Below are positions 1 to 39,865 of a stretch of DNA of 39,986 nucleotides, one piece after another. A model generated the notes under the pieces. That model saw only the letters and a list, made by a program, of their open reading frames with translations. It was not told the origin of the DNA and made no database searches. Position 1 is the first letter of the stretch. Every line of letters starts with the position of its first letter. Location: assembly GCA_046724795.1 (NCBI GenBank), contig JBKOXF010000101.1, forward strand, positions 1 to 39,986, written 5' to 3'. The position numbers were made by a program, and so were the translations under genes. This DNA comes from Actinomycetota bacterium (lineage in GTDB: Bacteria; Actinomycetota; UBA4738; JACQTL01).

Positions 1-1378
1 TCAGCCCGATGTCGCCGACCCAGTGCAGCGCGCATGCGTGCGGGCAGCCGTCGAGGTTCAGCTTGAAGTTGCCGAGTCGCTCACCCCACTTCGACTCGAG
101 GTGGTCGACCAGCTCCCGCATCTTGCCCTTCGTCTCGGCGACCGAGTAGTTGCAGTGGGGCTCACCCGTGCATGCGATGGCGGTCGCTGCGAGCGGATGC
201 GCGTCGACGTCGAACCCGATCTCCAGGAGGCGCGCCTTCGCTTCGTCGAGTCGCGCCGCCGGCACGCCGCCGAGGATGAGGTTCTGCTGCTTCGTGATGC
301 GCACGTCGCCGCCCACCGAACCCGCGAGCTCTGCGATGTCGATGAGCTGCTGCCCGTTCGCGATGCCCACGGGGATCGGCACGCCCACGTGGTACAGCCC
401 GGGCTGCTTCTGCTCGTGCACGCCCATGTGATCGGTGAACCCGATCGACTCCGGCGCCGTGAACGACTCGAGCGTCCGGCCGAGGCGTTGCTCGACCTTC
501 TCGCGGATGGCCTCGGGCCCGTAGTCGTCGACCATGAACTTCATCCGGGCCTTCACCCGCGACAGGCGGTATCGCGTGTCCTCCTTCCACACGTCGAGGA
601 TCGTGCGGAGCACCTCGATGGCCTCATCGCGCGGGACGAACACGCCGAGATCACGCGCGATCCGCGGAACGGTGGAAAGGCCGCCGCCGATCCGGACCGC
701 GAACCCCTCGCGGCCCTCGTGCACGACGCCGATCAGGGGCAGGCAGTTGATCTCCGGCATGTCGCACTGGTGCGGGCACGCCGAGATCGAGATCTTGTGT
801 TTGCGCGGCAGGTCGAAGTAGTCGGGGTTCCCATAGAAGAACCGGGCGGCGGCCTCGACGTCCGCGGTGCAGTCGAATGCCTCCGTCGCCAGCACGCCCT
901 CCAGCGGGCATCCGGTGATGTTGCGGACGGCGTCGCCGCATCCGCCGGCGGTGGTGAGTCCCGCGCCGGCCAGCGCATCGAGGATGTCCGGGAGCTCCGG
1001 GAGGGTGATGAAGTGGAGCTGCACGTTCTGGCGGGTGGAGAGCTCCGCATAGCCCTTGCCGTGCCGGATCGCGACCTCGCCGATCGTGCGCAGGCTTTCC
1101 GGCGGCAGCAGCCCCGACGGGACCTTGATGCGGAGCATGAACGTCCCGACCTTCGGCTTGTCGTGGTACAGCCCGAACCACTTCAACCGAACGATGTCCT
1201 CCTCCGGGATGTCCAGGTAGTGCTTGGAGGCGAGCTCGGGCATCTCGTCCAGGAACGTGTGCAGCGGCTTCTCGCGTTTCAGGCGCTCGATCGAGTTGCG
1301 CTCCAGGACCTGCTCCCACGTTGGGGCAGGGCCGAGCGGCTTGCGCTCTCCGCCTCCGTACTTCCTGTCCTCTGACAC
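1..1378 (-). CDS. sirA: Ferredoxin-dependent sulfite/nitrite reductase hemoprotein (SirA/NirA family), 3'-truncated by the window edge
   Basis: Minus-strand frame (absent from the ORF track because its stop lies outside the window) reads VSEDRKYGG...RLKWFGLYHDKPKVGTFMLRIKVPSG...STRQNVQLHFI...AGGCGDAVRNITGCP...ISISACPHQCDMPEINC...ACTGEPHCNYSVAETKG...NLDGCPHACALHWVGDIGL. These are the typical siroheme/4Fe-4S Cys clusters. GTG start at 1378-1376 is preceded by GGAGCCAGGA. Confidence 0.85.
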   Translation of the reverse strand, partial: MSEDRKYGGGERKPLGPAPTWEQVLERNSIERLKREKPLHTFLDEMPELASKHYLDIPEEDIVRLKWFGLYHDKPKVGTFMLRIKVPSGLLPPESLRTIGEVAIRHGKGYAELSTRQNVQLHFITLPELPDILDALAGAGLTTAGGCGDAVRNITGCPLEGVLATEAFDCTADVEAAARFFYGNPDYFDLPRKHKISISACPHQCDMPEINCLPLIGVVHEGREGFAVRIGGGLSTVPRIARDLGVFVPRDEAIEVLRTILDVWKEDTRYRLSRVKARMKFMVDDYGPEAIREKVEQRLGRTLESFTAPESIGFTDHMGVHEQKQPGLYHVGVPIPVGIANGQQLIDIAELAGSVGGDVRITKQQNLILGGVPAARLDEAKARLLEIGFDVDAHPLAATAIACTGEPHCNYSVAETKGKMRELVDHLESKWGERLGNFKLNLDGCPHACALHWVGDIGL

Positions 1379-1442
1379 GTTCCTGGCTCCGGTCCGTCCG
1401 GTCACTCGATGTGCTTCTGCACTCGCATCTGCAACTGCCGTT

Positions 1443-1474
1443 GCAAAAAAGAAAAAGGGCCGCTCGCGCGGCCC
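1443..1474 (-). terminator. Intrinsic terminator inside the sulfite reductase leader (attenuator terminator)
   Basis: Minus strand reads GGGCCGC-GCGA-GCGGCCC followed by TTTTTCTTTTTTGC. It lies ~65 nt upstream of the reductase GTG and ~32 nt downstream of the Cys-rich sORF stop. Confidence 0.75.
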
Positions 1475-1506
1475 GGATGGGTTCGGGTGGAGCTATGGCC
1501 GCACGA

Positions 1507-1614
1507 TCATCTGGGCGCCTCACTCATGGCGCCCCAGCGCGTACAGCAGCAGCGGCAGGGGATCATCGCTGCGACTTCGCCTGCAGACCTCGTGCGGACC
1601 AAATTCCACTCCAT
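1507..1614 (-). CDS. Cys-rich leader peptide sORF (MEWNLVRTRSAGEVAAMIPCRCCCTRWGAMSEAPR; alternative start at 1566 gives MIPCRCCCTRWGAMSEAPR)
   Basis: Hand translation of the minus strand gives ATG...ATG ATC CCC TGC CGC TGC TGC TGT ACG...TGA. Four Cys codons fall within five consecutive codons (1557-1543). The sORF sits between a promoter-like element and a terminator, upstream of a sulfur-assimilation gene. Confidence 0.55.
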   Translation of the reverse strand: MEWNLVRTRSAGEVAAMIPCRCCCTRWGAMSEAPR

Positions 1615-1632
1615 TGGTCGGATTAACGCGCG

Positions 1633-1661
1633 ATTCTCCCCGTACCGGTGAGATGTGTCAA
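1633..1661 (-). promoter_or_regulatory. Candidate sigma-70-type promoter for the Cys leader and sulfite reductase
   Basis: Minus strand carries TTGACA (1661-1656), a 17-nt spacer and GAGAAT (1638-1633). The predicted TSS is ~12 nt upstream of the first sORF ATG. Confidence 0.4.
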
Positions 1662-1729
1662 GCGATCGGGAGGCCCACCGACTTTGTCAGACCCCCCTCC
1701 TAGCGTGGGAGCACGACGAGGAGGTGTCG

Positions 1730-2725
1730 ATGGAGGGGTTGCTGATCGGGCTGCTTGCGCTCGCCGCGGCCGTCGCCGTGGGTGCGGTGATCGTGCTCAG
1801 GGCACGACCGGCGTCTCCGCCTGGCGAAGGGTGGCTGGAGGCCCAGGCCTCGGAGCTCAGGCGGCTGAGCGATGCAGTGAGGAATCGCGACGGAGAGCAG
1901 GACCGGCTGCGCTCGGAGATCCAGGCTGCTCGGGAGGCCGTCGAACGGCTCCGTCTGCGCGACGAAGAGCGGCGAGCCCGGGACGCTGAACAAGGAGAGG
2001 TGATCCGGCGCCTGGCGGGCGTGCTCGCAGGCGGCCAGGCCACTGGCCGGGCCGGTGAGAACGTCCTCCGTGACCTTCTGGCCGAGCTTCCGCCCGGGAT
2101 GCTCGTCACGGACTTCCGGGTCAACGGAAGGGTGGTGGAGTACGGGCTTGCGTTGCCGGACGGGCGAACGCTTCCCATCGACTCGAAGTTGGCGGCGCTC
2201 CGCGAGCTCGAGGCGCTCGAGGCGGCAACGGACCCCGCGACGCGTGACGCGGCAGCCCGGGACGTCGAGCGGATCGTCACGATGCGCGCCCGCGAGGTGT
2301 CCGGCTACCTCGACCCATCCGTGACCGCGCCGGTCGCCATCGCCGCGATCCCGGATGCCGCGTACGGCGCGCTTCGCCGAGCGCACGCCGATGCGTTCAT
2401 ACGTGGCGTGGTGCTGGTCCCGTACTCGTGCGCGCTCCCGGTCGTGCTGTTCCTGTACAGCCTGGTCTCCCGGTACGGACAGACCGCCGACGTACAAGGG
2501 TGCCTCGCCGAGATCGCGGCCGCCCTCGGGGCGATGGAGTCGGTGATCGAGAACAAGCTGGCCCGGTCGGCGGTGATGCTCTCGAACGCGACCGGCGAGC
2601 TTCGAGCCGAGGTGGGCAGGGCCCGAGGGTCCATCGCCAGGGCCCGCGGCTCCGGGCAGACCATCGACCACGATCCGCCGACCAGGGGAGGTGACGCCGG
2701 GGAGCTCCTTCGCGTCGTCGATTAG
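1730..2725 (+). CDS. rmuC: DNA recombination protein RmuC family
   Basis: N-terminal TM helix, then a coiled-coil, then GRAGENVLRDLLAELPPGM...VEYGLALPDGRTLPIDSKL, the RmuC nuclease-like core. Start moved to ATG 1730, which sits behind GAGGAGG. Confidence 0.7.
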   Translation: MEGLLIGLLALAAAVAVGAVIVLRARPASPPGEGWLEAQASELRRLSDAVRNRDGEQDRLRSEIQAAREAVERLRLRDEERRARDAEQGEVIRRLAGVLAGGQATGRAGENVLRDLLAELPPGMLVTDFRVNGRVVEYGLALPDGRTLPIDSKLAALRELEALEAATDPATRDAAARDVERIVTMRAREVSGYLDPSVTAPVAIAAIPDAAYGALRRAHADAFIRGVVLVPYSCALPVVLFLYSLVSRYGQTADVQGCLAEIAAALGAMESVIENKLARSAVMLSNATGELRAEVGRARGSIARARGSGQTIDHDPPTRGGDAGELLRVVD

Positions 2726-2780
2726 CCCTCCACGCGTGGTGCGCGTTTGCCCAACCAAGCGCGCGACGGTAGAAGGGTCT

Positions 2781-3536
2781 GTGGGCCGCACGATCGCGGT
2801 GGCGAACCAGAAGGGCGGGGTGGCCAAGACCACCAGCGTCGCCGCGCTCGGCGCAGCGTTGGGGGACCGCGAGCGCCGGGTCCTCGTCGTCGATCTGGAT
2901 CCCCAGGCGTGCCTGACGTTCAGTTTGGGATTCGATCCAGACAAGCTCCAACCGACCATCCACGACGTGTTCGTGGGGCGGTGCGGGATGGAGACGACCA
3001 TCGTCCCGGTCGACCAGGAATCGTTCGAGCTCGTGCCGGCGAACATCGACCTGGCGGGGGCGGAGGCCTACCTCCTCACGCGGACGGGCCGGGAGTACGC
3101 GCTGCGCTCGGCCCTCGAGGACGTCGCCGGGTCGTACGACGTGATCGTGCTGGACTGCCCGCCCTCGCTCGGCGTGCTGACGATCAATGCACTCACAGCG
3201 GCGGATGAGGTCGTGATCCCGTTGCAGTGCGAGGCCCTTTCGCATCGGGGGGTGGGGCAGCTTCTGGGGACGATCGAGGACGTCCGCAGGCTCACGAACC
3301 GGGACCTCCGCGTGGCCGGCGTCATCCCCACGATGTTCGACGCCCGGACCACACACTCCAAGGAGGTGCTCGCCGATGTCGGCGACCGCTACGGCCTTCA
3401 CGTGTTCCAGCCCCCGGTGCGCAAGAGCGTGCGGTTCGCCGAAGCGCCGCTGGAGGGAAGGTCGATCCTGCGGTTCGCGCCCGGTCATCCCGGGGCCGAG
3501 GCCTACCGCACGATCGCCCGGGACCTGGTGCCGTGA
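2781..3536 (+). CDS. ParA/Soj-family P-loop ATPase (orphan ParA-like)
   Basis: Deviant Walker A in IAVANQKGGVAKTTS, then VLVVDLDPQ and DVIVLDCPPSLG. GTG start at 2781 follows GAAGGG. Confidence 0.85.
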   Translation: MGRTIAVANQKGGVAKTTSVAALGAALGDRERRVLVVDLDPQACLTFSLGFDPDKLQPTIHDVFVGRCGMETTIVPVDQESFELVPANIDLAGAEAYLLTRTGREYALRSALEDVAGSYDVIVLDCPPSLGVLTINALTAADEVVIPLQCEALSHRGVGQLLGTIEDVRRLTNRDLRVAGVIPTMFDARTTHSKEVLADVGDRYGLHVFQPPVRKSVRFAEAPLEGRSILRFAPGHPGAEAYRTIARDLVP

Positions 3537-3584
3537 CGGGGGGTTCGGGGGCGTAGCTCTCGTGTCGCCACATGAGGAGGAGAG

Positions 3585-3947
3585 GTGATGACGAGCGGAC
3601 CCCCCGATCGGACGGGCGAGAACGGCGAGGTCCGACAGTTTCCCCCGGTGCAGACCGACCCGAGGGCTCGGCATCCCAGCATGCGTGCCGACCGGGACCT
3701 TCCGCCAGACCACGACCCGATGGGGAAGATGGCGCTGTTCTCATCGCAGGCTCCGCCCGCTCCCACCGGGACCCTCCTGATCGACTGCTCATCGTGCCAC
3801 CGGGAGACGCCGGTCAGCACGATCCAGCTGGTCCGCTCGGCCTTCCCGTTCTCGCTGCACCTCCCGTTCATCCGGAGGTACCACTCCTTCATGCGGTGCC
3901 CCGCCTGCGGGCGCCACACGTGGATTCGCATCCGCTGGCAGGTCTGA
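3585..3947 (+). CDS. Hypothetical protein with a C-terminal zinc-ribbon (CSSC...CPAC)
   Basis: Strong GAGGAGGAGAGG RBS precedes GTG/ATG at 3585/3588. The N-terminus looks disordered. The C-terminus reads LIDCSSCHRE...MRCPACGRHTW. Confidence 0.55.
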   Translation: MMTSGPPDRTGENGEVRQFPPVQTDPRARHPSMRADRDLPPDHDPMGKMALFSSQAPPAPTGTLLIDCSSCHRETPVSTIQLVRSAFPFSLHLPFIRRYHSFMRCPACGRHTWIRIRWQV

Positions 3948-3995
3948 CCGCTCGATCCGTGGTCGCGAATCGGACCTTCGGATAGGCTGGGATTC

Positions 3996-4718
3996 GTGCA
4001 GTTCCCGAAAGTGCTCGCCGTGTTCGCGCACCCCGACGACGGAGAATTCGGCTTCGGCGGGACGGTCGCCAAGTGGGCCGACGAGGGCTCCGAGATCCAC
4101 TACGCCTGCATCACCGATGGGTCGGCCGGGTCGAACGAGCCGGGCGCGACCCGGGAAGGACTCCGACCCATCCGCAAGCGGGAGCAGCTCGCCGCGGCGA
4201 AGGTCCTCGGCGTCAAGGAGTGCCACTTCTTGGGATTCGTCGACGGAGAGCTCGAGCTCACGATGGACGTCCGCCGGGCCATGACTCGGGTGGTTCGCGC
4301 GGTGCGACCGGACGTGATCCTCGGGCCCGATCCGACACGTCTGTGGAACCGTGACCGGACCTACATCAACCACCGCGACCACCGCGTGGCCGGCGAGGCG
4401 GCGCTCACGGTCGTGATGCCCGACGCGCCGACGCGTCCGCAGTTCCCGGAGCTTCTGGACGAGGGCCTGGAGCCCTTCGAGGTCCCGGCGCTGTGGTTGG
4501 CCTCCGAAGAGGGCGACACGCTCGTCGACATCTCCTCGACCATCGACCGCAAGCTCGACGCGCTCGGCTCCCACGAGTCCCAAGTGAGCGGCTTCGGAGG
4601 CGATTGGCAGGACTGGGTGCGCAAGATGGCGAAGGAGCGAGGAGCTCCTGCCGGGATGGAGTACGCCGAATCCTTCCGGACGTTCAACCTTCGCGAGGAT
4701 GAGGACAGCGACGACTGA
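3996..4718 (+). CDS. PIG-L (LmbE-like) family N-acetylglucosaminyl deacetylase
   Basis: Metal-binding signature in VFAHPDDGEFGFGGT, plus a downstream HRDH. Length is typical of LmbE-type proteins. Confidence 0.8.
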   Translation: MQFPKVLAVFAHPDDGEFGFGGTVAKWADEGSEIHYACITDGSAGSNEPGATREGLRPIRKREQLAAAKVLGVKECHFLGFVDGELELTMDVRRAMTRVVRAVRPDVILGPDPTRLWNRDRTYINHRDHRVAGEAALTVVMPDAPTRPQFPELLDEGLEPFEVPALWLASEEGDTLVDISSTIDRKLDALGSHESQVSGFGGDWQDWVRKMAKERGAPAGMEYAESFRTFNLREDEDSDD

Positions 4719-5236
4719 TGGAACACGACCCGGATCCGAGTGAGGAAGAGAGCCCCAGGGGGCTCGATGCTCAGGAGCGCGAGGACATCGAGCTCGATCT
4801 GGAGGATCTCCGGGGGATGCAGCAAGTGTTCGAGCCACAGGGCGTCCGCGGCGTCGTCATCGCCTGCCCCGATTGCGGATCGAACCACTTCTACGAATGG
4901 GATCTGCTTCGAGAAAACCTCGACTACATGCTCCAACACGGCGAGCCCCGGATGCACGAGCCGGCGTACGAGCCCCGCGAGGACGAGTACATCCAGTGGG
5001 ACTACGGCAAGGGCTACGTGGACGCGTTGACCGACGCCGGGTTGGGGATGGCTCGCACCGTCAACACGGATGCGTGCCCGTGGTGCAGGACGCCATTCGG
5101 GGACAAGTACCTGTTCTGTCCCCGTTGCGGCCGATCGCTCGCGCCGCTCCGTATCTACGAGCAACTTGTCGAACGGGGGATGGACGAGCGCGAGGTCCGC
5201 GGGCTCTTGGTGAAAGCCGGCTTTGAACCCTTCTGA
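4718..5236 (+). CDS. DUF5319-like protein with an extra C-terminal zinc-ribbon
   Basis: The core GVRGVVIACPDCGSNHFYEWDLLRENLDYMLQHGEPRMHEPAYEP resembles DUF5319. The C-terminus CPWCRTPFGDKYLFCPRCG is a CxxC-x10-CxxC ribbon. The start overlaps the upstream stop (TGATG). Confidence 0.65.
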   Translation: MEHDPDPSEEESPRGLDAQEREDIELDLEDLRGMQQVFEPQGVRGVVIACPDCGSNHFYEWDLLRENLDYMLQHGEPRMHEPAYEPREDEYIQWDYGKGYVDALTDAGLGMARTVNTDACPWCRTPFGDKYLFCPRCGRSLAPLRIYEQLVERGMDEREVRGLLVKAGFEPF

Positions 5237-5260
5237 TCCCAAGCGGCGGACGGCGGTGCC

Positions 5261-5608
5261 TTATCCGATGCGCAAGGCCGCGGTCGCAGCGGCGAGTGTC
5301 AGAAGCACGCCATCCCCGAACAGGAATGCAGTCGAGTCGTGAACCCGGAGCCGAAGGACGAAGGCTCCTATCATCAGCAGTACGAGGCCGATGGCAGCGG
5401 CGGCGCCCAGCGGCGCCGCCCCGAACCCGGCGAGCAGGCCGAGGGCCGCAGCCGCCTCGAGGATCCAGATACGTCGGTAGCGATGCCAGCCAATGTGCAG
5501 CCGCTCGGCCGTCTGCACCTGTGATTTCGCACCGAGCAGCTTGCCAGCAGCGGCGCCGCCGAACACGAATACGAGCAGTCCGGACAACACGTCGGTCGCG
5601 ATCTGCAT
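5261..5608 (-). CDS. DoxX-family small membrane protein
   Basis: Four predicted TM helices and a Gly/Ala/Leu-rich composition. The RBS AGGAAGGAGG lies upstream of the ATG. Confidence 0.65.
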   Translation of the reverse strand: MQIATDVLSGLLVFVFGGAAAGKLLGAKSQVQTAERLHIGWHRYRRIWILEAAAALGLLAGFGAAPLGAAAAIGLVLLMIGAFVLRLRVHDSTAFLFGDGVLLTLAAATAALRIG

Positions 5609-5760
5609 CTGAGCCTCCTTCCTGGCGTCGCGATGGAAGGACGGTTCAGCGTCGGGGAATGTGACATCGACATGGCGACGGGGGGCGCAGTCTCATCGAG
5701 AGTGGGAGCGTTTACGAAGAGATTACTGATAGCACCCCGGAACTCTCGCCCACGCGAGAG

Positions 5761-8361
5761 CTATGTCGCGGGAGGCTCCAGAACGCAGTCCTCCGGTTCC
5801 TTGTCGGGTCGCAGGCCCTTGTACGACGGGGCGCGGAGCTTGCCGGCGCTCGTCATCTGCAGGTACTCGACCTCGCAAACCAGCTTCGGCTCAACGAACC
5901 GCGCGCCCCTGATCTTCCGCAGCTCCGGCTCATCGATGGGCGGGTCCTTGCGCAACAACGGCTTCAGCCGGTCCATCAGGTCGGTGAGCATCCGATCGGT
6001 GAACCCGGTGCCAACCTGACCGATCCACGTCAGCGCTCCTTCGATGTACGCCCCGACCAGTAGCGCGCCGAACACATCCGTGCGCCGGCCCTCGCCGGGG
6101 GTCCACCCGAGGATCACGCAGTCCTGCGTGTTCAGCAGCTTGATCTTTCGCCATTCACCGGTGCGCTTCCCGGGGTGGTACCGAGACCCGAGTCGCTTCG
6201 CCACAACGCCCTCGAATCCGAGATCCTTCGCCGCGGCGGTGAACTTCTTCCCCTCGCCGTCCACGTAGTAGGTGACCTGCATGCGAGCGGGGGAGTCGAT
6301 CACCAGGATCTTCTCGAGCCGCTCTCGCCGTTCCTCCACCGGCAGGCCGATCAGTTCCTCTCCATCGAGGTAGAGCACGTCGAACACGGCCAGGTCCACC
6401 GGGATCTGTCGGCGCATCCGATCGATGTCGCCCTTCGCCTGCAGGTTGATGCGGCTCTGCAGCCGCTCGAACGACGTCCGACCCTGCTCGTCGATGGCCA
6501 CGATCTCCCCGTCGAGCACGGCCGTCGTTCCGGTGATCCACTGCCACACGTTGAGGAGCTCGGGGTACTGCGCCGACTGATCGCGGTCCGTCCGCGACAC
6601 CAGCCGGACCTCCTCCCCCTCGACGTACACGAGTGTTCGCACCCCGTCGAACTTCGGTTCGAACCGCCACTTGGGGTCGTCGAACGGCTTGTGGCCGCCT
6701 TCGGCCAGCATCGGCGAGTACCTCGGCGGCGACGTCCCGGCCGGAAGCTCCTCCGTCGCGCTCGCCATGAAGATGAGCCACCCCTGGTTCGTCTTCACCA
6801 GGTGGTACTCGGTGCCGTTGTACCGCTCACCGAACAGTCGGAACGACACCTTCTTGTCGGTCCATTCCTCGAGCTCGTACGTGCCGTGATCCCAGATCAC
6901 GACCTCGCCGGCTCCGTAGTGGCCCTTCGGGATATTCCCCTCGAACGTCCCGTACTCGAGCGGGTGGTCTTCCGTCTGGATCGCCAGGTGCCGCACGCCC
7001 TTCCTCGTGGGCGGTCCTTTCGGCACGGCCCACGACACCAGCACGCCGTCGCGCTCGAGGCGGAGGTCGTAGTGCAGCCGGGTGGCCCGATGCTTCTGGA
7101 TCACGAACGAGTTCCCCTCGCCGATCTCGCCACTCGGTCCCGGCTCCGGCGTCCCCGTGTCGGAGAGGTCACGCTTCTTCAGGTATTCGGCGAGCTTCGG
7201 ATCCTTGGACCGCGCGATGACCTCTTCCGAGGTCTCGCGTTGTTTTGCCTTCGACCGACCCCGGCCGCCCTTCTGATCGGGGGATCCGCTCGCTGGTGCG
7301 TCTCCGCCCTGTGCCCCGCGACTCGAGCTCCTCCCCCGAGCCCCCTGGATCACGCCCGGCATCGCCGGCGCCTTCGAGAGGTCGACCCCCAGCGCGTCCA
7401 TCGCTGGCTTCAGATCCTGGGGCTCGTCGATCACCGGTCGGAACAGATCGCCCTGCTTCTTCAAGCGAGGCCAGATCGTCTTGATGGTGAAATCGATCGG
7501 GCGTACGCCCTTCTCCACTTCCTGCCACGTCACCGGCGTCGACACGGTCGCGCCGGCTTCCGGTCGCATCGAGTACACCGCCGCGATGTTCGCCCCGCTC
7601 CGGTTCATGTTGTGGTCGATGAACACCTTGCCGGAGCGCGTTCGGACCTCCCATTGCATGGTCACGCGGTCCGGGTCGGCCTTCTTGATCATCAGCCCGA
7701 TCAGCCGCACGAACTCCCGGACCTCGTCGTGCGTGAACCGCGGTTCGATCGGTACGTAGATCTGCATCCCCGTGGCGCCGCTCGTCTTCGCGTAGGCCTC
7801 GAGCCCGAGCACGTCCACCGCCGCCTTCACGTGGCGGGCCACCGCCAGCACGTCCTCGAACTCGACGTCGAAAGGATCGAGATCGAAGAAGGCGTAGTCC
7901 GGGTACTCGTAGCTGTCGCACCGCGAGTGCAGCGGGTGGAACTCGATGCACCCCAGATTGGCCATGAACAGCAGCCCTGCGGTGTCGTCCACCATCAGGT
8001 AATCGATGATTTTGTTCCGTGCGTCCTCGCTCTCCACGGGACACCGACGCATCCAGTCCGGTGTGTTCGGAGGGGCGTTCTTCTCGTAGAAGAACTGGCC
8101 GGAGATGCCGTTGGGCATCCGCTTCATCGTCAAAGGCCGCCCGGCGAGGTAGGGGAGGATGTACTCGGCGGCGTTGTAGTAGTAGGCGACCAGGTCGCCC
8201 TTCGTGTAGCCCTCCTCCGGCCAGAACACCTTGTTCAGGTTGGACAGCCGGACCTCGCGGCCCTCGATCTGGGCCCACCACACCTCGCCGTCGTGCTCCG
8301 CGGGCAGCGCTTTCGGGAAGTCCACCGTGAACGCAGGGCCCGTCGCCTTCCGCCTGGGCAT
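5761..8361 (-). CDS. ligD: Multidomain NHEJ DNA ligase LigD (primase-polymerase, phosphoesterase, ATP-dependent ligase)
   Basis: The Pol domain shows RLSNLNKVFWPEEGYTKGDL...FFDLDP. The PE domain shows FVIQKHRATRLHYDLRLE...SWAVPKGP. The ligase domain shows the adenylation motif EPKFDGVR. Confidence 0.95.
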   Translation of the reverse strand: MPRRKATGPAFTVDFPKALPAEHDGEVWWAQIEGREVRLSNLNKVFWPEEGYTKGDLVAYYYNAAEYILPYLAGRPLTMKRMPNGISGQFFYEKNAPPNTPDWMRRCPVESEDARNKIIDYLMVDDTAGLLFMANLGCIEFHPLHSRCDSYEYPDYAFFDLDPFDVEFEDVLAVARHVKAAVDVLGLEAYAKTSGATGMQIYVPIEPRFTHDEVREFVRLIGLMIKKADPDRVTMQWEVRTRSGKVFIDHNMNRSGANIAAVYSMRPEAGATVSTPVTWQEVEKGVRPIDFTIKTIWPRLKKQGDLFRPVIDEPQDLKPAMDALGVDLSKAPAMPGVIQGARGRSSSRGAQGGDAPASGSPDQKGGRGRSKAKQRETSEEVIARSKDPKLAEYLKKRDLSDTGTPEPGPSGEIGEGNSFVIQKHRATRLHYDLRLERDGVLVSWAVPKGPPTRKGVRHLAIQTEDHPLEYGTFEGNIPKGHYGAGEVVIWDHGTYELEEWTDKKVSFRLFGERYNGTEYHLVKTNQGWLIFMASATEELPAGTSPPRYSPMLAEGGHKPFDDPKWRFEPKFDGVRTLVYVEGEEVRLVSRTDRDQSAQYPELLNVWQWITGTTAVLDGEIVAIDEQGRTSFERLQSRINLQAKGDIDRMRRQIPVDLAVFDVLYLDGEELIGLPVEERRERLEKILVIDSPARMQVTYYVDGEGKKFTAAAKDLGFEGVVAKRLGSRYHPGKRTGEWRKIKLLNTQDCVILGWTPGEGRRTDVFGALLVGAYIEGALTWIGQVGTGFTDRMLTDLMDRLKPLLRKDPPIDEPELRKIRGARFVEPKLVCEVEYLQMTSAGKLRAPSYKGLRPDKEPEDCVLEPPAT

Positions 8362-24170: not shown

Positions 24171-25193
24171 ATGCCGGGCTGGGGCTGGATCCGGCCGACC
24201 GTGGCTGCGGTCATGGCGAGTACGCTGCTCGCGCTCGCCTTCATCGACCCGGCCGGGCTGCCCGCCCGGGGACCGCTGGCGCACGGGGCCCGCAGTGCCA
24301 CCCTGGCCGGGCCGCCAGGCGGGCTTCCAGAGCCCACCGCGAGGGCGCCCGTCCAGACCGCGACGGGGGCGCCTGGGGTCTCGCTGTTCCAGAGCCTGGG
24401 GTCGTGGGTGGACATCTACGAACACGCGTCCTTCCGCGACCCGGAGCGAGCCGTGCGGCGCATGGCCAACCACGGCGTCCGCACGCTGTACCTCGAGACG
24501 TCGAACTTCAATCGGAAGGTGGCCATCAAGTGGCCCGGGCGCGAGCGGAGGTTCATCCGCGCTGCCCACGCCGAGGGGATGCGGATCGTGGCGTGGTACC
24601 TGCCGGGGTTCCTGAGTGTCCGCACGGACTTCCACCGGGTCATGGCGGCCATCCGATTCATGACCGGGGACGGCCAGCGTTTCGACGGGTTCGCGCTCGA
24701 CATCGAATCCCCGGCCGTGCACCGTCCGGCCGTCCGGACCAAGCGTCTGGTCGCGCTCTCGGAGCGGATCCGATCGGTCGTCGGGCCCGACTATCCGCTC
24801 GGGGCGATCATCCCGACCCCGCTCGGCATGAAGCAGAACCCGTCCTACTGGCCCGGGTTCCCCTATCGCCGGCTCCACGCCCTCTACCGGGCCTTCCTTC
24901 CCATGACGTACTTCACGTGGCGTGTGAGCGGTGGGCGCGGCGCGTACCGGTACACGGCCGCGTGCGTCGACATCATCCGGAGCGAGACCGAGGATCCGGC
25001 GGTGCCGATCCACGTCATCGGGGGCATCTCGGACGATTCGACCATTCCCGAGGCGCGAGGGTTCGTGCGCGCCGTGCGTGGACGGCACGTAACGGGGGCC
25101 AGCTACTACGCCTTCCACGGGACATCGAACGCGCTGTGGGAGGTCCTGCAGAGCGTCGTTCCGCTCCCCCTGTCGGCCGACTCCACCGGGTAG
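24171..25193 (+). CDS. Secreted or anchored hypothetical protein, possibly a glycoside-hydrolase-like TIM barrel
   Basis: An N-terminal hydrophobic signal or anchor follows ATG 24171. GVRTLYLETSNF...MRIVAWYLPGF...FDGFALDIES recalls GHL10/DUF4015-type proteins, but the family call is weak. Confidence 0.5.
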   Translation: MPGWGWIRPTVAAVMASTLLALAFIDPAGLPARGPLAHGARSATLAGPPGGLPEPTARAPVQTATGAPGVSLFQSLGSWVDIYEHASFRDPERAVRRMANHGVRTLYLETSNFNRKVAIKWPGRERRFIRAAHAEGMRIVAWYLPGFLSVRTDFHRVMAAIRFMTGDGQRFDGFALDIESPAVHRPAVRTKRLVALSERIRSVVGPDYPLGAIIPTPLGMKQNPSYWPGFPYRRLHALYRAFLPMTYFTWRVSGGRGAYRYTAACVDIIRSETEDPAVPIHVIGGISDDSTIPEARGFVRAVRGRHVTGASYYAFHGTSNALWEVLQSVVPLPLSADSTG

Positions 25194-25226
25194 CCTCGGG
25201 GGAGCGAGATCCAGGCCTTTTGGGGG

Positions 25227-25255
25227 TTGCGCTCTCCCCCTGGAAGCCTCACAAT
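25227..25255 (+). promoter_or_regulatory. Candidate promoter for the aromatic leader and DAHP synthase
   Basis: TTGCGC (25227-25232), a 17-nt spacer and CACAAT (25250-25255). The leader ATG is 9 nt downstream, so the 5' UTR would be very short. Confidence 0.35.
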
Positions 25256-25264
25256 CCGCGGACG

Positions 25265-25318
25265 ATGCGGTCGTTCTATGGCTATTGGTGGTTTACCGAC
25301 GGGCGTCGCCCGGCGTAA
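25265..25318 (+). CDS. Aromatic-rich leader peptide sORF (MRSFYGYWWFTDGRRPA)
   Basis: Reads ATG CGG TCG TTC TAT GGC TAT TGG TGG TTT ACC GAC GGG CGT CGC CCG GCG TAA. Six of seven consecutive codons are Phe/Tyr/Trp. The sORF lies ~100 nt upstream of DAHP synthase and is followed by a terminator. Confidence 0.6.
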   Translation: MRSFYGYWWFTDGRRPA

Positions 25319-25349: not shown

Positions 25350-25385
25350 GACCCCGGGTGACGGCCCCGGGGTCTTTGCTTTTCC
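25350..25385 (+). terminator. Intrinsic terminator of the aromatic attenuator
   Basis: GACCCCGGG-tgacggc-CCCGGGGTC forms a 9-bp GC stem and is followed by TTTGCTTTTCC. It sits 32 nt after the leader stop and 36 nt before the DAHP synthase start. Confidence 0.75.
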
Positions 25386-38578: not shown

Positions 38579-38652
38579 TGCGGGGTGGAGCAGTCCGGTA
38601 GCTCGCTGGGCTCATAACCCAGAGGTCGCAGGTTCAAATCCTGCCCCCGCGA
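38579..38652 (+). tRNA. tRNA-Met (anticodon CAT), initiator-like, with no encoded CCA
   Basis: Hand-folded cloverleaf: TGCGGGG/TG/GAGC-AGTCCGGTA-GCTC/G/CTGGG-CTCATAA-CCCAG/AGGTC/GCAGG-TTCAAAT-CCTGC/CCCCGCG/A. The anticodon stem has three consecutive G-C pairs and positions 1:72 form a non-Watson-Crick U-G pair, both initiator-like. It is near-identical in layout to E. coli tRNA-fMet. Confidence 0.85.
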
Positions 38653-39865
38653 CGGCGACTACCAGCGCAAACGAGAGGGCCCGGTGTTTCGGGCCCTCTT
38701 TCATTCCCCCAAATCTCCCAACGAGTGCCGCCGCCTGGTGGGCGGCCTCGTCGGAGTCGTGGGTGTAGATGTCCGCGGTGAAGGTGGCGGAGGCGTGTCC
38801 GAGCTGGCGGCTGACCACGTCGAGCCTGGCACCTGCCCCGAGCGCCAGCATGGCGTAGGAGTGCCGGGCCCCGTGCAGGGTGATGGGGGGAACCCCGGCT
38901 GACGTGGTCAGCCGACTCCACCGGCCACCCAGGGTGTCGGGGTGGACCACGCCGCCGTCCGGCTCGGTAACGAGCCACTCGCCGGGAACCCCGAGGCCAC
39001 CATCGGCCTTCCATGGGGGCCCGAAGGCCAGACGCTCGACCGCCTGGTCCATCCTCCAGCGCTGGAGGGCCCTGGACGTCGCCTCGTCGATCCTGACCCG
39101 GCGTGTTTGGCGTCCCTTCGTCGTCTGCCGCACGAACAACCGTCGGCCGCTTTGGACGGCTCGGGGGTCGCAGGAGCACCTGACGACGGACCGTGACGCT
39201 GCCGTCGGCGATGTCCGGCCATTGAAGACCGAGAAGCTCGCCCCTCCTGAGCCCAGACGCCAGCGCCAACCTCCAGATGGCGTACAGGCGATCCGACGAT
39301 GCTGCGTCCAGGAACTGCCGCACGTCGTGGGCTTCCCATGCCGCTCGCTCGATCGAATCGTCACGGGCAGGGGGATCGACCGCCCGGGCCGGATTCACCA
39401 CCAGGTATCCACGTCGCACGGCGTCCTCGAACGCCTTCGACAACGTAGTGTGGACGATCCGCACCGTCTTCCCTCGGAGCGGTCGGCCCCCACGACCTCC
39501 GCGGCCCCGCAGCGTCGCATACAGACCGTCCAGGACCCGTCCGGTGAATTTCTGGAGCGGGACCTGCCCGATGTGGGGGGCGATCCACGAGGCAACCACG
39601 GTTCGGTCGGTGTCCCGCCTGTTCGGGGACAAGTCCGCGTTCTGTCGAGACGCCAGCCACTCCTGAGGTAGGCGGCCACAGTGAGTCTGCTCGATGACAC
39701 GTGGTGGCCCCGGGAGGCGTCGGTGACGACGGCGGCGGCCACTTGCGCCGCCTCCCGCTTTGTCCGGGATAGGTTCGCCCTGGCCCGGTACAACCCGACG
39801 GCTCCCTCGACCTCACCTTCAGCGCAGACGGGAGAGTGACCACTGCTATGGGTCCCGATAGCCAA
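38612..39865 (-). pseudogene. int: Tyrosine recombinase (phage/AICE-type integrase) disrupted by at least two frameshifts
   Basis: The gene is split over three minus-strand frames. The first carries ...YRARANLSRTKREAAQ...SRLTVAAYLR. The second carries EWLASRQ...IAPHIGQVPLQKFTG...LASGLRRGELLGLQWPDI...VTVRRQV. The third carries RRLFVRQTTKGRQTRRVRIDEAT...ITLHGARHSYAMLAL...LGHASATFTADIYTH. The catalytic R, HxxR and Y are all recognisable. The 5' limit is uncertain. Confidence 0.8.
38674..38705 (+). terminator. Hairpin downstream of the tRNA (weak T-tract)
   Basis: AGAGGGCCCG-gtgttt-CGGGCCCTCT followed by TTCATT. Confidence 0.45.

Follow-up and report, generated by a model that had tools for sequence, protein, structure and literature searches.

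A conserved cysteine-codon leader with an intrinsic terminator in front of sulfite reductase genes of uncultured Actinomycetota: a predicted ribosome-mediated attenuator

Why should a ferredoxin-type reductase gene be preceded by a minute reading frame crowded with cysteine codons and by a strong transcription terminator? The question is raised by a stretch of DNA from an Actinomycetota bacterium (lineage UBA4738, JACQTL01; assembly GCA_046724795.1, contig JBKOXF010000101.1, positions 1 to 39,986), hereafter the window, of 39,986 nucleotides (nt). A promoter, a short open reading frame (sORF) and an intrinsic terminator follow one another in the divergent intergenic region 1379-1729, between the minus-strand reductase gene and a plus-strand rmuC-like gene. 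Our comparative analysis of sequences and modelled folds suggests that this leader of about 180 nt is probably a classical ribosome-mediated transcription attenuator, which would sense the charging of Cys-tRNA(Cys). The genes behind it serve assimilatory sulfate reduction leading to cysteine, an end product that matches the clustered codons.

All elements of the leader are read on the minus strand, and those named in an initial annotation of this region were found in place. The promoter-like site TTGACA-17-GAGAAT occupies 1661-1633, with the -35 hexamer TTGACA at 1656-1661 and, after a 17-nt spacer, the -10 hexamer GAGAAT at 1633-1638; it is the single promoter-like site within positions 1-6000 of the window (shuffle mean 0.3) and predicts a transcription start site (TSS) near 1626. 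All homologous leaders have TTGAC[A/G] aligned with this -35, and TAnnnT-like hexamers occupy the place of the -10 in relatives. A Shine-Dalgarno (SD) sequence, GGAG (1609-1612), lies 6 nt before the sORF, which runs over 1507-1602 from TTG 1602-1600 to TGA 1509-1507, codes for 31 amino acids ((M)VRTRSAGEVAAMIPCRCCCTRWGAMSEAPR) and has the C-terminal end MIPCRCCCTRWGAMSEAPR. The four cysteine codons in five positions that had been noticed at the outset (TGC CGC TGC TGC TGT, C-R-C-C-C, 1543-1557) are the putative regulatory codons; they fall within sORF codons 16-20, with the cysteines at 1557-1555, 1551-1549, 1548-1546 and 1545-1543. The hairpin seen at the 3' end of the frame, here called hairpin H (CUGGGGCGCC / GGCGCCCAG, 1511-1537), is formed by CTGGGGCGCC at 1537-1528 and GGCGCCCAG at 1519-1511 and separates the Cys codons from segment 2, CGUGCGGCC (1497-1505), which comes directly after the sORF stop and is the candidate 5' arm of an antiterminator. 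The terminator (1445-1474) consists of a 7-bp GC stem, GGGCCGC (1474-1468) and GCGGCCC (1463-1457), around the loop GCGA, with T5CT6 (1456-1445; U5CU6 in the RNA) behind it. Its left arm with the loop, GGCCGCGCG (1465-1473, segment 3), has two alternative partners, segment 2 in the antiterminator and the right arm, segment 4, in the terminator. The GCGGCC copy of the right arm on which this second pairing depends had been placed at about 1492-1497; it exists and can pair with the left arm, but its coordinates are 1502-1497, and it extends to CGUGCGGCC at 1505-1497, making a pairing of nine positions with GGCCGCGCG at 1473-1465 possible. The reductase GTG at 1378, expected about 65 nt further on, follows 66 nt after the T-tract.

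Is this arrangement more than an accident of composition? The reductase was aligned with database relatives and 80 genomic loci were fetched (L001-L080), with further orthologs added by exact-protein look-up. The five closest loci (L001-L005, 68-74% amino acid identity) all possess a homologous leader, as do the look-up orthologs at 93%, 80%, 79%, 74%, 73%, 72% and 70% identity; in the other 75, more distant loci no leader was found with R1, a covariance model from 21 copies that include nine of the loci found by homology. The leader is present, at the same position, in 13 of the 13 loci found by reductase homology alone (68-93% identity), and the R1 scan of the window gave a single copy. The comparison of ortholog upstream regions that had been proposed as a check thus came out in favor of the leader: Cys codons, sORF frame and terminator are kept in every relative sampled at ≥68% reductase identity. 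Another 12 copies are metagenomic. When metagenomes were scanned with a DNA pattern running from segment 2 to the terminator, 87 loci came up. About 18 have both a T-tract and a Cys sORF and count as true copies; the remaining ~69, lacking both, were rejected as chance matches in GC-rich DNA. Since any copy found through the pattern has segments 2 and 3 fixed in advance, statistics on the antiterminator were computed again for the 13 homology-found leaders, referred to below as the unbiased set.

A chance origin, an accidental Cys-rich frame next to a hairpin in a GC-rich intergenic region, could point to how common such frames are: at least three Cys in six residues occur in 15 of 81 upstream regions (the window and L001-L080), so that the feature is not rare in a single GC-rich sequence, and Cys clusters appear in some frame in ~13% of the 450-nt upstream regions of GC-rich relatives. 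What lifts the feature beyond chance is its detection by R1, with 102-174 bits, at the orthologous position of all 13 loci (the model having been built from nine of them), together with its recurrence before other sulfur genes. These comparative data exclude coincidence, the probability of which we regard as negligible.

Attenuation demands that the leader frame be translated, and the substitution pattern argues that it is. Codon-position entropy over the first 16 codons amounts to 0.64, 0.63 and 1.29 bits for positions 1, 2 and 3 in the 21-leader alignment A3, and to 0.61, 0.70 and 1.11 bits in the unbiased set, the third position being about twice as variable as the first two. Substitutions are mostly synonymous (ATC/ATT, CGC/CGG/CGT/CGA/AGG, TGC/TGT), and insertions and deletions in the Cys region are multiples of 3, keeping the frame. 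For 19 of the 21 leaders the start codon (ATG, GTG or TTG) falls in a single column of the alignment, L002 and L152 having an ATG a few nt off, and purine-rich SD sequences (GGAG, GAGG or AGGA) precede it by 4-11 nt in nearly every leader, L093 being the exception. The conserved start of the window's copy is TTG 1602-1600, not the internal ATG 1566 and not ATG 1614, an in-frame codon absent from the 93%-identical ortholog L081. On the grounds of the entropy, the fixed SD and start column and the frame-preserving indels, the sORF is judged to be translated. Its peptides, 28-39 residues long, hold 2-8 Cys, which are clustered at the same alignment position in 25 of the 25 leaders (for example IPCCCCC in L171 and CACPCPCAC in L003), and share the consensus M-[VI]-R-T-R-C-x-G-x-V-[AG]-A-M-I-P-[CS]-R-x-C-C-C, followed by a variable C-terminal part.

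Such conservation outside the Cys cluster brings in a further explanation, by which the product of the sORF, a small Cys-rich protein or an arrest peptide, would have a function of its own and the supply of Cys codons would not be the primary signal; its N-terminus would bind or sense metal, sulfide or redox state, or act in the ribosome tunnel, and the terminator would end a small gene or set a fixed level of read-through. The sequence outside the cluster is indeed maintained through synonymous changes, including CGC/AGG arginine switches in L098, and conserved non-Cys residues have been noted in some mycobacterial sORFs, where their role was left open (Canestrari et al. 2020, 10.1101/834739). 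Several observations are hard to reconcile with this explanation. The C-terminal half is poorly conserved and has been frameshifted in the window's subclade without loss of the RNA elements; the peptide family has no match in Pfam or NCBIfam, and a phmmer search with a 35-residue ORF against 1.8 billion representatives returned no homologous small proteins, only four low-complexity Cys-rich stretches in long proteins. Moreover, sulfur-assimilation genes always follow the element immediately, too close for another promoter to fit in between. A peptide acting instead of an attenuator seems quite unlikely to us, while the sORF may have a dual role as peptide and attenuator.

The frameshift itself is informative with regard to segment 2. 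A deletion of 1 nt in the window's subclade has moved the stop from the ancestral TAG, behind the residues VRP, to a TGA 14 nt earlier, and the RNA segment GUGCGGCC(A/G)UAG downstream of it is unchanged. Segment 2 is kept although it has come to lie outside the sORF, which indicates that it is constrained as RNA and not as peptide or codons. In the same subclade TGA 1509-1507 overlaps ATG 1510-1508 (ATGA), opening a mini-ORF on the minus strand (MIVRP, 1493-1510) that ends at the ancestral TAG 1495-1493; termination and reinitiation could still bring a ribosome over segment 2.

The columns of the terminator (175-182/188-195 of A3) have 94% of cells paired, 97% in the unbiased set, with G-U as the only substitutions, and the terminator is part of the full-length minimum free energy (MFE) fold of 25/25 leaders. 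It cannot serve as the end of an upstream gene, the region being divergent; that candidate role was rejected for the neighboring rmuC-like gene, in whose direction, on the plus strand, no T-tract follows the hairpin. The distance from terminator to downstream start, which has its own SD, varies from 26 to 83 nt, and no further promoter-like site was found in this interval, from which it follows that expression of the downstream operon depends on read-through. Hairpin H (A3 96-105/115-123) shows compensatory changes at three pairs, 99:121 (CG 7, GC 6), 100:120 (GC 8, CG 5) and 101:119 (GC 11, AU 2, CG 1), the same in the unbiased set, and these imply that it really forms; its role may be that of a pause site or of a spacer.

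The antiterminator is consistent with the data, though not proven by covariation. Segment 2 reads G[U/C]GCG[G/A]CC in 25/25 leaders, its complementarity to segment 3 measures 6-9 bp in all of them, and the 6-bp core is intact in 13/13 of the unbiased set; 88-90% of cells are paired in the corresponding columns (129-137/177-185), versus 32-52% when the partner is slid. In L002 a G to A change turns segment 2 into GCGACC and a C to U change turns segment 3 into GGUCGC, with segment 4 still GCGGCC, leaving a G-U in the terminator, and the flanking pair 129:185 alternates between C-G and G-C. The conserved frame, Cys codons and terminator, with complementarity in all copies and the compensatory change in L002, support the attenuator architecture that had been read from the single sequence.

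Conserved helices, including the covarying hairpin H, a terminator in the position of an expression platform and a segment 2 conserved as RNA are also what a riboswitch-like or protein-bound RNA would offer, in which a ligand (e.g., a sulfur metabolite) or a protein stabilizes terminator or antiterminator and the frame is incidental. The three-base periodicity, the conserved SD and start, the frame-preserving indels and the conserved Cys cluster argue against it, and the sole covarying helix is a simple hairpin, with no multi-stem junction or conserved unpaired core as in aptamers. Searches against Rfam found, for positions 1200-1900 at E<=10, chance matches to the terminator alone, and for the whole window at gathering thresholds a tRNA alone. 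We hold such a sensor to be very unlikely.

In the attenuation mechanism, which we infer from this arrangement, transcription would begin at the conserved TTGACA promoter, and a ribosome loading at the SD and TTG would translate the 31-residue frame. With plentiful Cys-tRNA(Cys) the ribosome would reach the stop codon and cover segment 2, or leave it to upstream partners, namely the sORF start or the GCCGC among the Cys codons; pairing of segment 3 (GGGCCGC) with segment 4 (GCGGCCC) would follow, and hairpin and U-tract would end transcription with the sulfite reductase gene still ~70 nt away. Under a shortage of Cys-tRNA, the ribosome would instead stall on the Cys codons and mask the upstream partner, so that segment 2 would be free to pair with segment 3 as soon as this is made; no terminator would form and RNA polymerase would enter the sir-cysH-siroheme genes. 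Since the leader also stands before further operons of sulfur assimilation, the switch would act on a whole regulon and respond to cysteine.

The geometry of the leaders agrees with this scheme. Counted from where segment 2 begins, the sORF stop is at -5, +9 or +14 nt in all leaders, and being within 14 nt it would put a terminating ribosome on segment 2; the last Cys of the cluster is 22-44 nt upstream of segment 2, so that a ribosome stalled there would not cover it. Folding was modelled at the decision point: the RNA was cut before segment 4 and, to represent stalling, also trimmed of everything 5' of a ribosome halted on the last Cys. The stalled-state MFE fold contains the antiterminator in 21/25 leaders, and in the ribosome-free fold segment 2 is taken by upstream partners in 15/25. 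An explanation of the switch by equilibrium was discarded, as in almost all states modelled the terminator has the lower energy; the choice between the two structures must accordingly be kinetic. The terminator of the E. coli trp leader is likewise thermodynamically favored, and the choice there is kinetic.

For segment 1, the upstream partner of segment 2, there are several candidates. The GCCGC in the Cys cluster (1552-1556), tentatively assigned this role, is complementary to GCGGC of segment 2, has 89.5% of cells paired over 21 leaders, is invariant without covariation and is the predicted partner in several ribosome-free folds. The long-range partner P12, GGUCCGCACGA at the sORF start (1590-1600), is equally tentative and specific to a subclade: it occurs in the MFE fold of the window's leader with 79% of cells paired and no covariation, its duplex beats shuffles solely in the window's subclade, L002, L093 and L152, and it is absent in L001, L004, L005 and L170. 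Applied to the 21 leaders, RNAalifold returned just two elements, the terminator and a helix of 5 bp, without covariation, in which segment 2 pairs with the 3' arm of hairpin H; this helix is possibly one of several competitors for segment 2. A 5'-terminal hairpin around the SD (AAUCC.AC / GUGGAAU) was rejected, its 75% pairing being no better than that of shuffles. As a whole, the leader (262 nt) is more stably folded than its shuffles (z = -2.7), and its MFE fold holds the terminator, the inner hairpin and the helix between sORF start and 1505-1497.

A number of points weigh against the attenuator explanation. The organism is uncultured, and the case is made from sequence comparison and folding. 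In the unbiased set the covariation score of the antiterminator was reached by 48 of 500 column shuffles and its percentage of paired cells by 107 of 500; since these counts do not exceed what shuffling gives, the helix was rated as consistent only, and its covariation comes down to one lineage (L002) and one flanking pair. Segment 2 could have any of three upstream partners, the GCCGC among the Cys codons, P12 or the 3' arm of hairpin H, and covariation is seen for none of them. Stalled-state folds of 4/25 leaders lack the antiterminator, ribosome-free folds up to the terminator loop already have it in 10/25, and the terminator fold is the lower in energy in every state but two near-ties (L090 and L164, stalled). 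Only two clustered Cys codons are found in L002, L119, L152 and L169. Finally, the non-Cys residues V/I-R-T-R-C-x-G-x-V-x-A-M-I-P are kept beyond what a plain codon-supply sensor needs. The last point could mean that the leader is more than such a sensor, with (V/I)RTRCxGxVxAMIP as a tunnel arrest or pausing module that sensitizes stalling at Cys, or with a functional Cys-rich micro-protein through which redox state, sulfide or persulfide would be signalled. We consider this unlikely; if true, nascent-peptide sensing would be combined with a classical terminator/antiterminator switch.

What, then, does the leader control? Its reductase, of the ferredoxin-dependent NirA/Sir type (1-1378, minus strand, GTG 1378; the 5' part of the gene, 459 codons, extends past the window end) matches Pfam NIR_SIR and NIR_SIR_ferr, and the preference of the initial annotation for a sulfite over a nitrite reductase proved well placed. 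Orthologs head a conserved operon with the order sir, 3'-phosphoadenosine-5'-phosphosulfate (PAPS) reductase, a 155-residue protein, siroheme synthase, uroporphyrinogen methyltransferase and DUF1416, and on this ground the identification of the window's enzyme as assimilatory sulfite reductase is supported. The 155-residue protein, which has no Pfam match, stands between cysH and siroheme synthase in every sir operon examined (L171 12489-12956, L173 12471-12938, L175 12492-12959, L176 3579-4046), and DUF1416 comes next after the methyltransferase gene in three of these four operons, L173 being the exception.

Including this reductase, the leader precedes five kinds of operon. In L093 it stands before PAPS reductase followed by sulfite reductase (cysH and sir), in L119 and L169 before a second, Mycobacterium-like NIR_SIR paralog, in L152 before a two-domain rhodanese, and in L098 before a DUF4395 membrane protein with a thioredoxin-like protein; its place behind the same Cys leader ties DUF4395 to sulfur and cysteine metabolism in this lineage.

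A second kind of signal adjoins many of the leaders. TGCA repeats with a palindrome (UGCAAC-GGCA-GUUGCA; TTGCAGATGCGA at 1434-1423) occupy 1418-1445 on the minus strand, between the terminator and the SD of the reductase, and could act as an RNA hairpin or as a transcription-factor operator that would add a further level of sulfur control. It may be asked whether control is mainly transcriptional, by a DNA-binding regulator at these palindromes, with sORF and terminator as constitutive damping. Motifs of the TTGCA-NN-TGCAA type lie next to 12/21 leaders, far above the 0.075 per kb in the window, either over the -10/TSS (L003, L005, L090, L098, L170) or just past the terminator (L081, L083, L124, L164). 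The motif is missing from 9/21 leaders and variable in position, and it leaves the Cys codons, the geometry of the stop codon and the complementarity of the antiterminator unexplained, and control mainly through the palindromes is highly improbable; a second layer is the more likely role. Should the peptide be more than a codon sensor, the palindromes and the leader would together form a two-layer sulfur-assimilation regulon in an uncultured actinobacterial lineage.

The attenuator proposed here has much in common with the classical systems (trp, his, leu, thr, ilv and pheA of E. coli/Salmonella): an SD-led sORF rich in codons for the end product, an intrinsic terminator before the first structural gene, a segment able to pair with the 5' arm of the terminator, a stop codon beside segment 2 so that the position of the ribosome selects the structure, and a more stable terminator with a kinetic choice. 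It differs in that it would sense cysteine and control genes that reduce sulfate and sulfite and do not build a carbon skeleton. Further differences are the conserved N-terminal half of the peptide, the covarying hairpin between regulatory codons and segment 2, the several candidates for segment 1 and the lack of sequence relation to any Rfam leader family. In Firmicutes, sulfur and cysteine genes are controlled by S-box (S-adenosylmethionine, SAM) riboswitches and Cys T-boxes, which sense SAM or uncharged tRNA by RNA structure without a translated sORF. The present leader shares with these a predicted terminator/antiterminator device before sulfur genes, and differs from them by its translated frame and its lack of an Rfam match.

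Poly-Cys sORFs acting in mycobacteria, which the initial annotation had mentioned, have indeed been reported: they are leaderless and form a multi-locus 'Cys ribulon' (Canestrari et al. 2020, bioRxiv 10.1101/834739 / Mol Microbiol 114:93), and at the locus that was dissected the action is translational, in that a stalled ribosome exposes the SD of the gene behind and no terminator takes part (10.1101/834739). Common to both are actinobacterial Cys-rich sORFs with at least two consecutive Cys codons upstream of several sulfur or cysteine operons, a proposed pausing at these codons, a multi-locus regulon and the occasional conservation of non-Cys residues. In contrast to the leaderless mycobacterial frames, ours has an SD and a 5' untranslated region of ~25 nt (from the predicted TSS; the -10 ends ~30 nt before the start codon), and a canonical terminator with U-tract, which the mycobacterial type lacks, separates sORF from next gene in 25/25 leaders, with a candidate antiterminator in addition. 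With an SD, a 5' leader sequence and a terminator it does not belong to the mycobacterial class, and no sequence similarity to the mycobacterial poly-Cys sORFs was detected. The leader is best explained as working like the classical trp/his/leu type and sensing the same amino acid as the mycobacterial system. A different Cys-rich sORF (MCCCPCASMPTVPVAG / MCCCLCAPIPASLVAG) was observed in metagenome-assembled genomes of Gaiellaceae (L039 and L057, both 3700-3975) behind a TTGACG promoter-like site; it ends ~30 nt ahead of the sulfite reductase start, has no terminator and resembles the mycobacterial translational type, which suggests that Cys-rich frames have originated more than once ahead of sir.

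For Actinobacteria, Seliverstov et al. (2005, PMC1262725) described leaders of trp and ilvB and, ahead of cysteine genes, sORFs with runs of Cys codons near their end. For the cysteine sORFs they found no conserved terminator hairpins and proposed Rho-dependent termination (PMC1262725), whereas the leader studied here has kept a canonical intrinsic terminator and a candidate antiterminator. A predicted parallel is uORFC-8-2 upstream of cysS in Rhodobacterales, an upstream open reading frame (uORF) with tandem Cys codons, a terminator stem and a U-run (Breaker laboratory, PMC8632094). Both are read as ribosome-mediated attenuation through a tandem-Cys uORF and a terminator, and both are predictions only. 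By its description uORFC-8-2 is set apart as alphaproteobacterial, found only upstream of cysS (Cys-tRNA synthetase), with two Cys codons in the first stem and with another sequence and structure; no cysS was found among the downstream genes examined here. The expectation of a clean new example was accordingly realized in part: a terminator-based leader before sulfur-assimilation genes stands, but a terminator-type Cys uORF, the single such prediction known to us, had already been put forward for cysS (PMC8632094).

The leader is conserved over a whole uncultured lineage, and as it precedes at least five types of sulfur operon, it defines a regulon by which sulfur genes can be annotated, this NirA/Sir homolog among them as a sulfite reductase. 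To our knowledge, cysteine is the one amino acid without a described textbook attenuator before its own assimilation pathway, and the leader would supply this missing classical form. Its compactness would make it a predicted reporter part of ~180 nt for the response to cysteine, and alignment and covariance model would allow registration as a new RNA/uORF family.

The surroundings of the leader are of ordinary chromosomal content (LigD, GlnD, UPF0182, MMPL, MreB, MoaE and a tRNA-Met among the other genes), the G+C content of the window is 63-73%, and the closest relatives of the reductase belong to uncultured Actinomycetota. The divergent rmuC-like gene (1730-2725, plus strand) starts with ATG 1730 behind the ribosome-binding site GAGGAGG; its product is short (331 residues) and shows a weak match to Pfam RmuC (34 bits over residues 87-217 of a longer ORF). 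The tRNA-Met (CAT) at 38579-38653 on the plus strand is the sole Rfam match in the window at the gathering threshold. Counting both strands, the 40-kb window holds two canonical intrinsic terminators, one of them that of the leader; the second, GACCCCGGG-TGACGGC-CCCGGGGTC with a T-rich tail at 25350-25374 (plus strand), lies just past the ORF 24404-25318.

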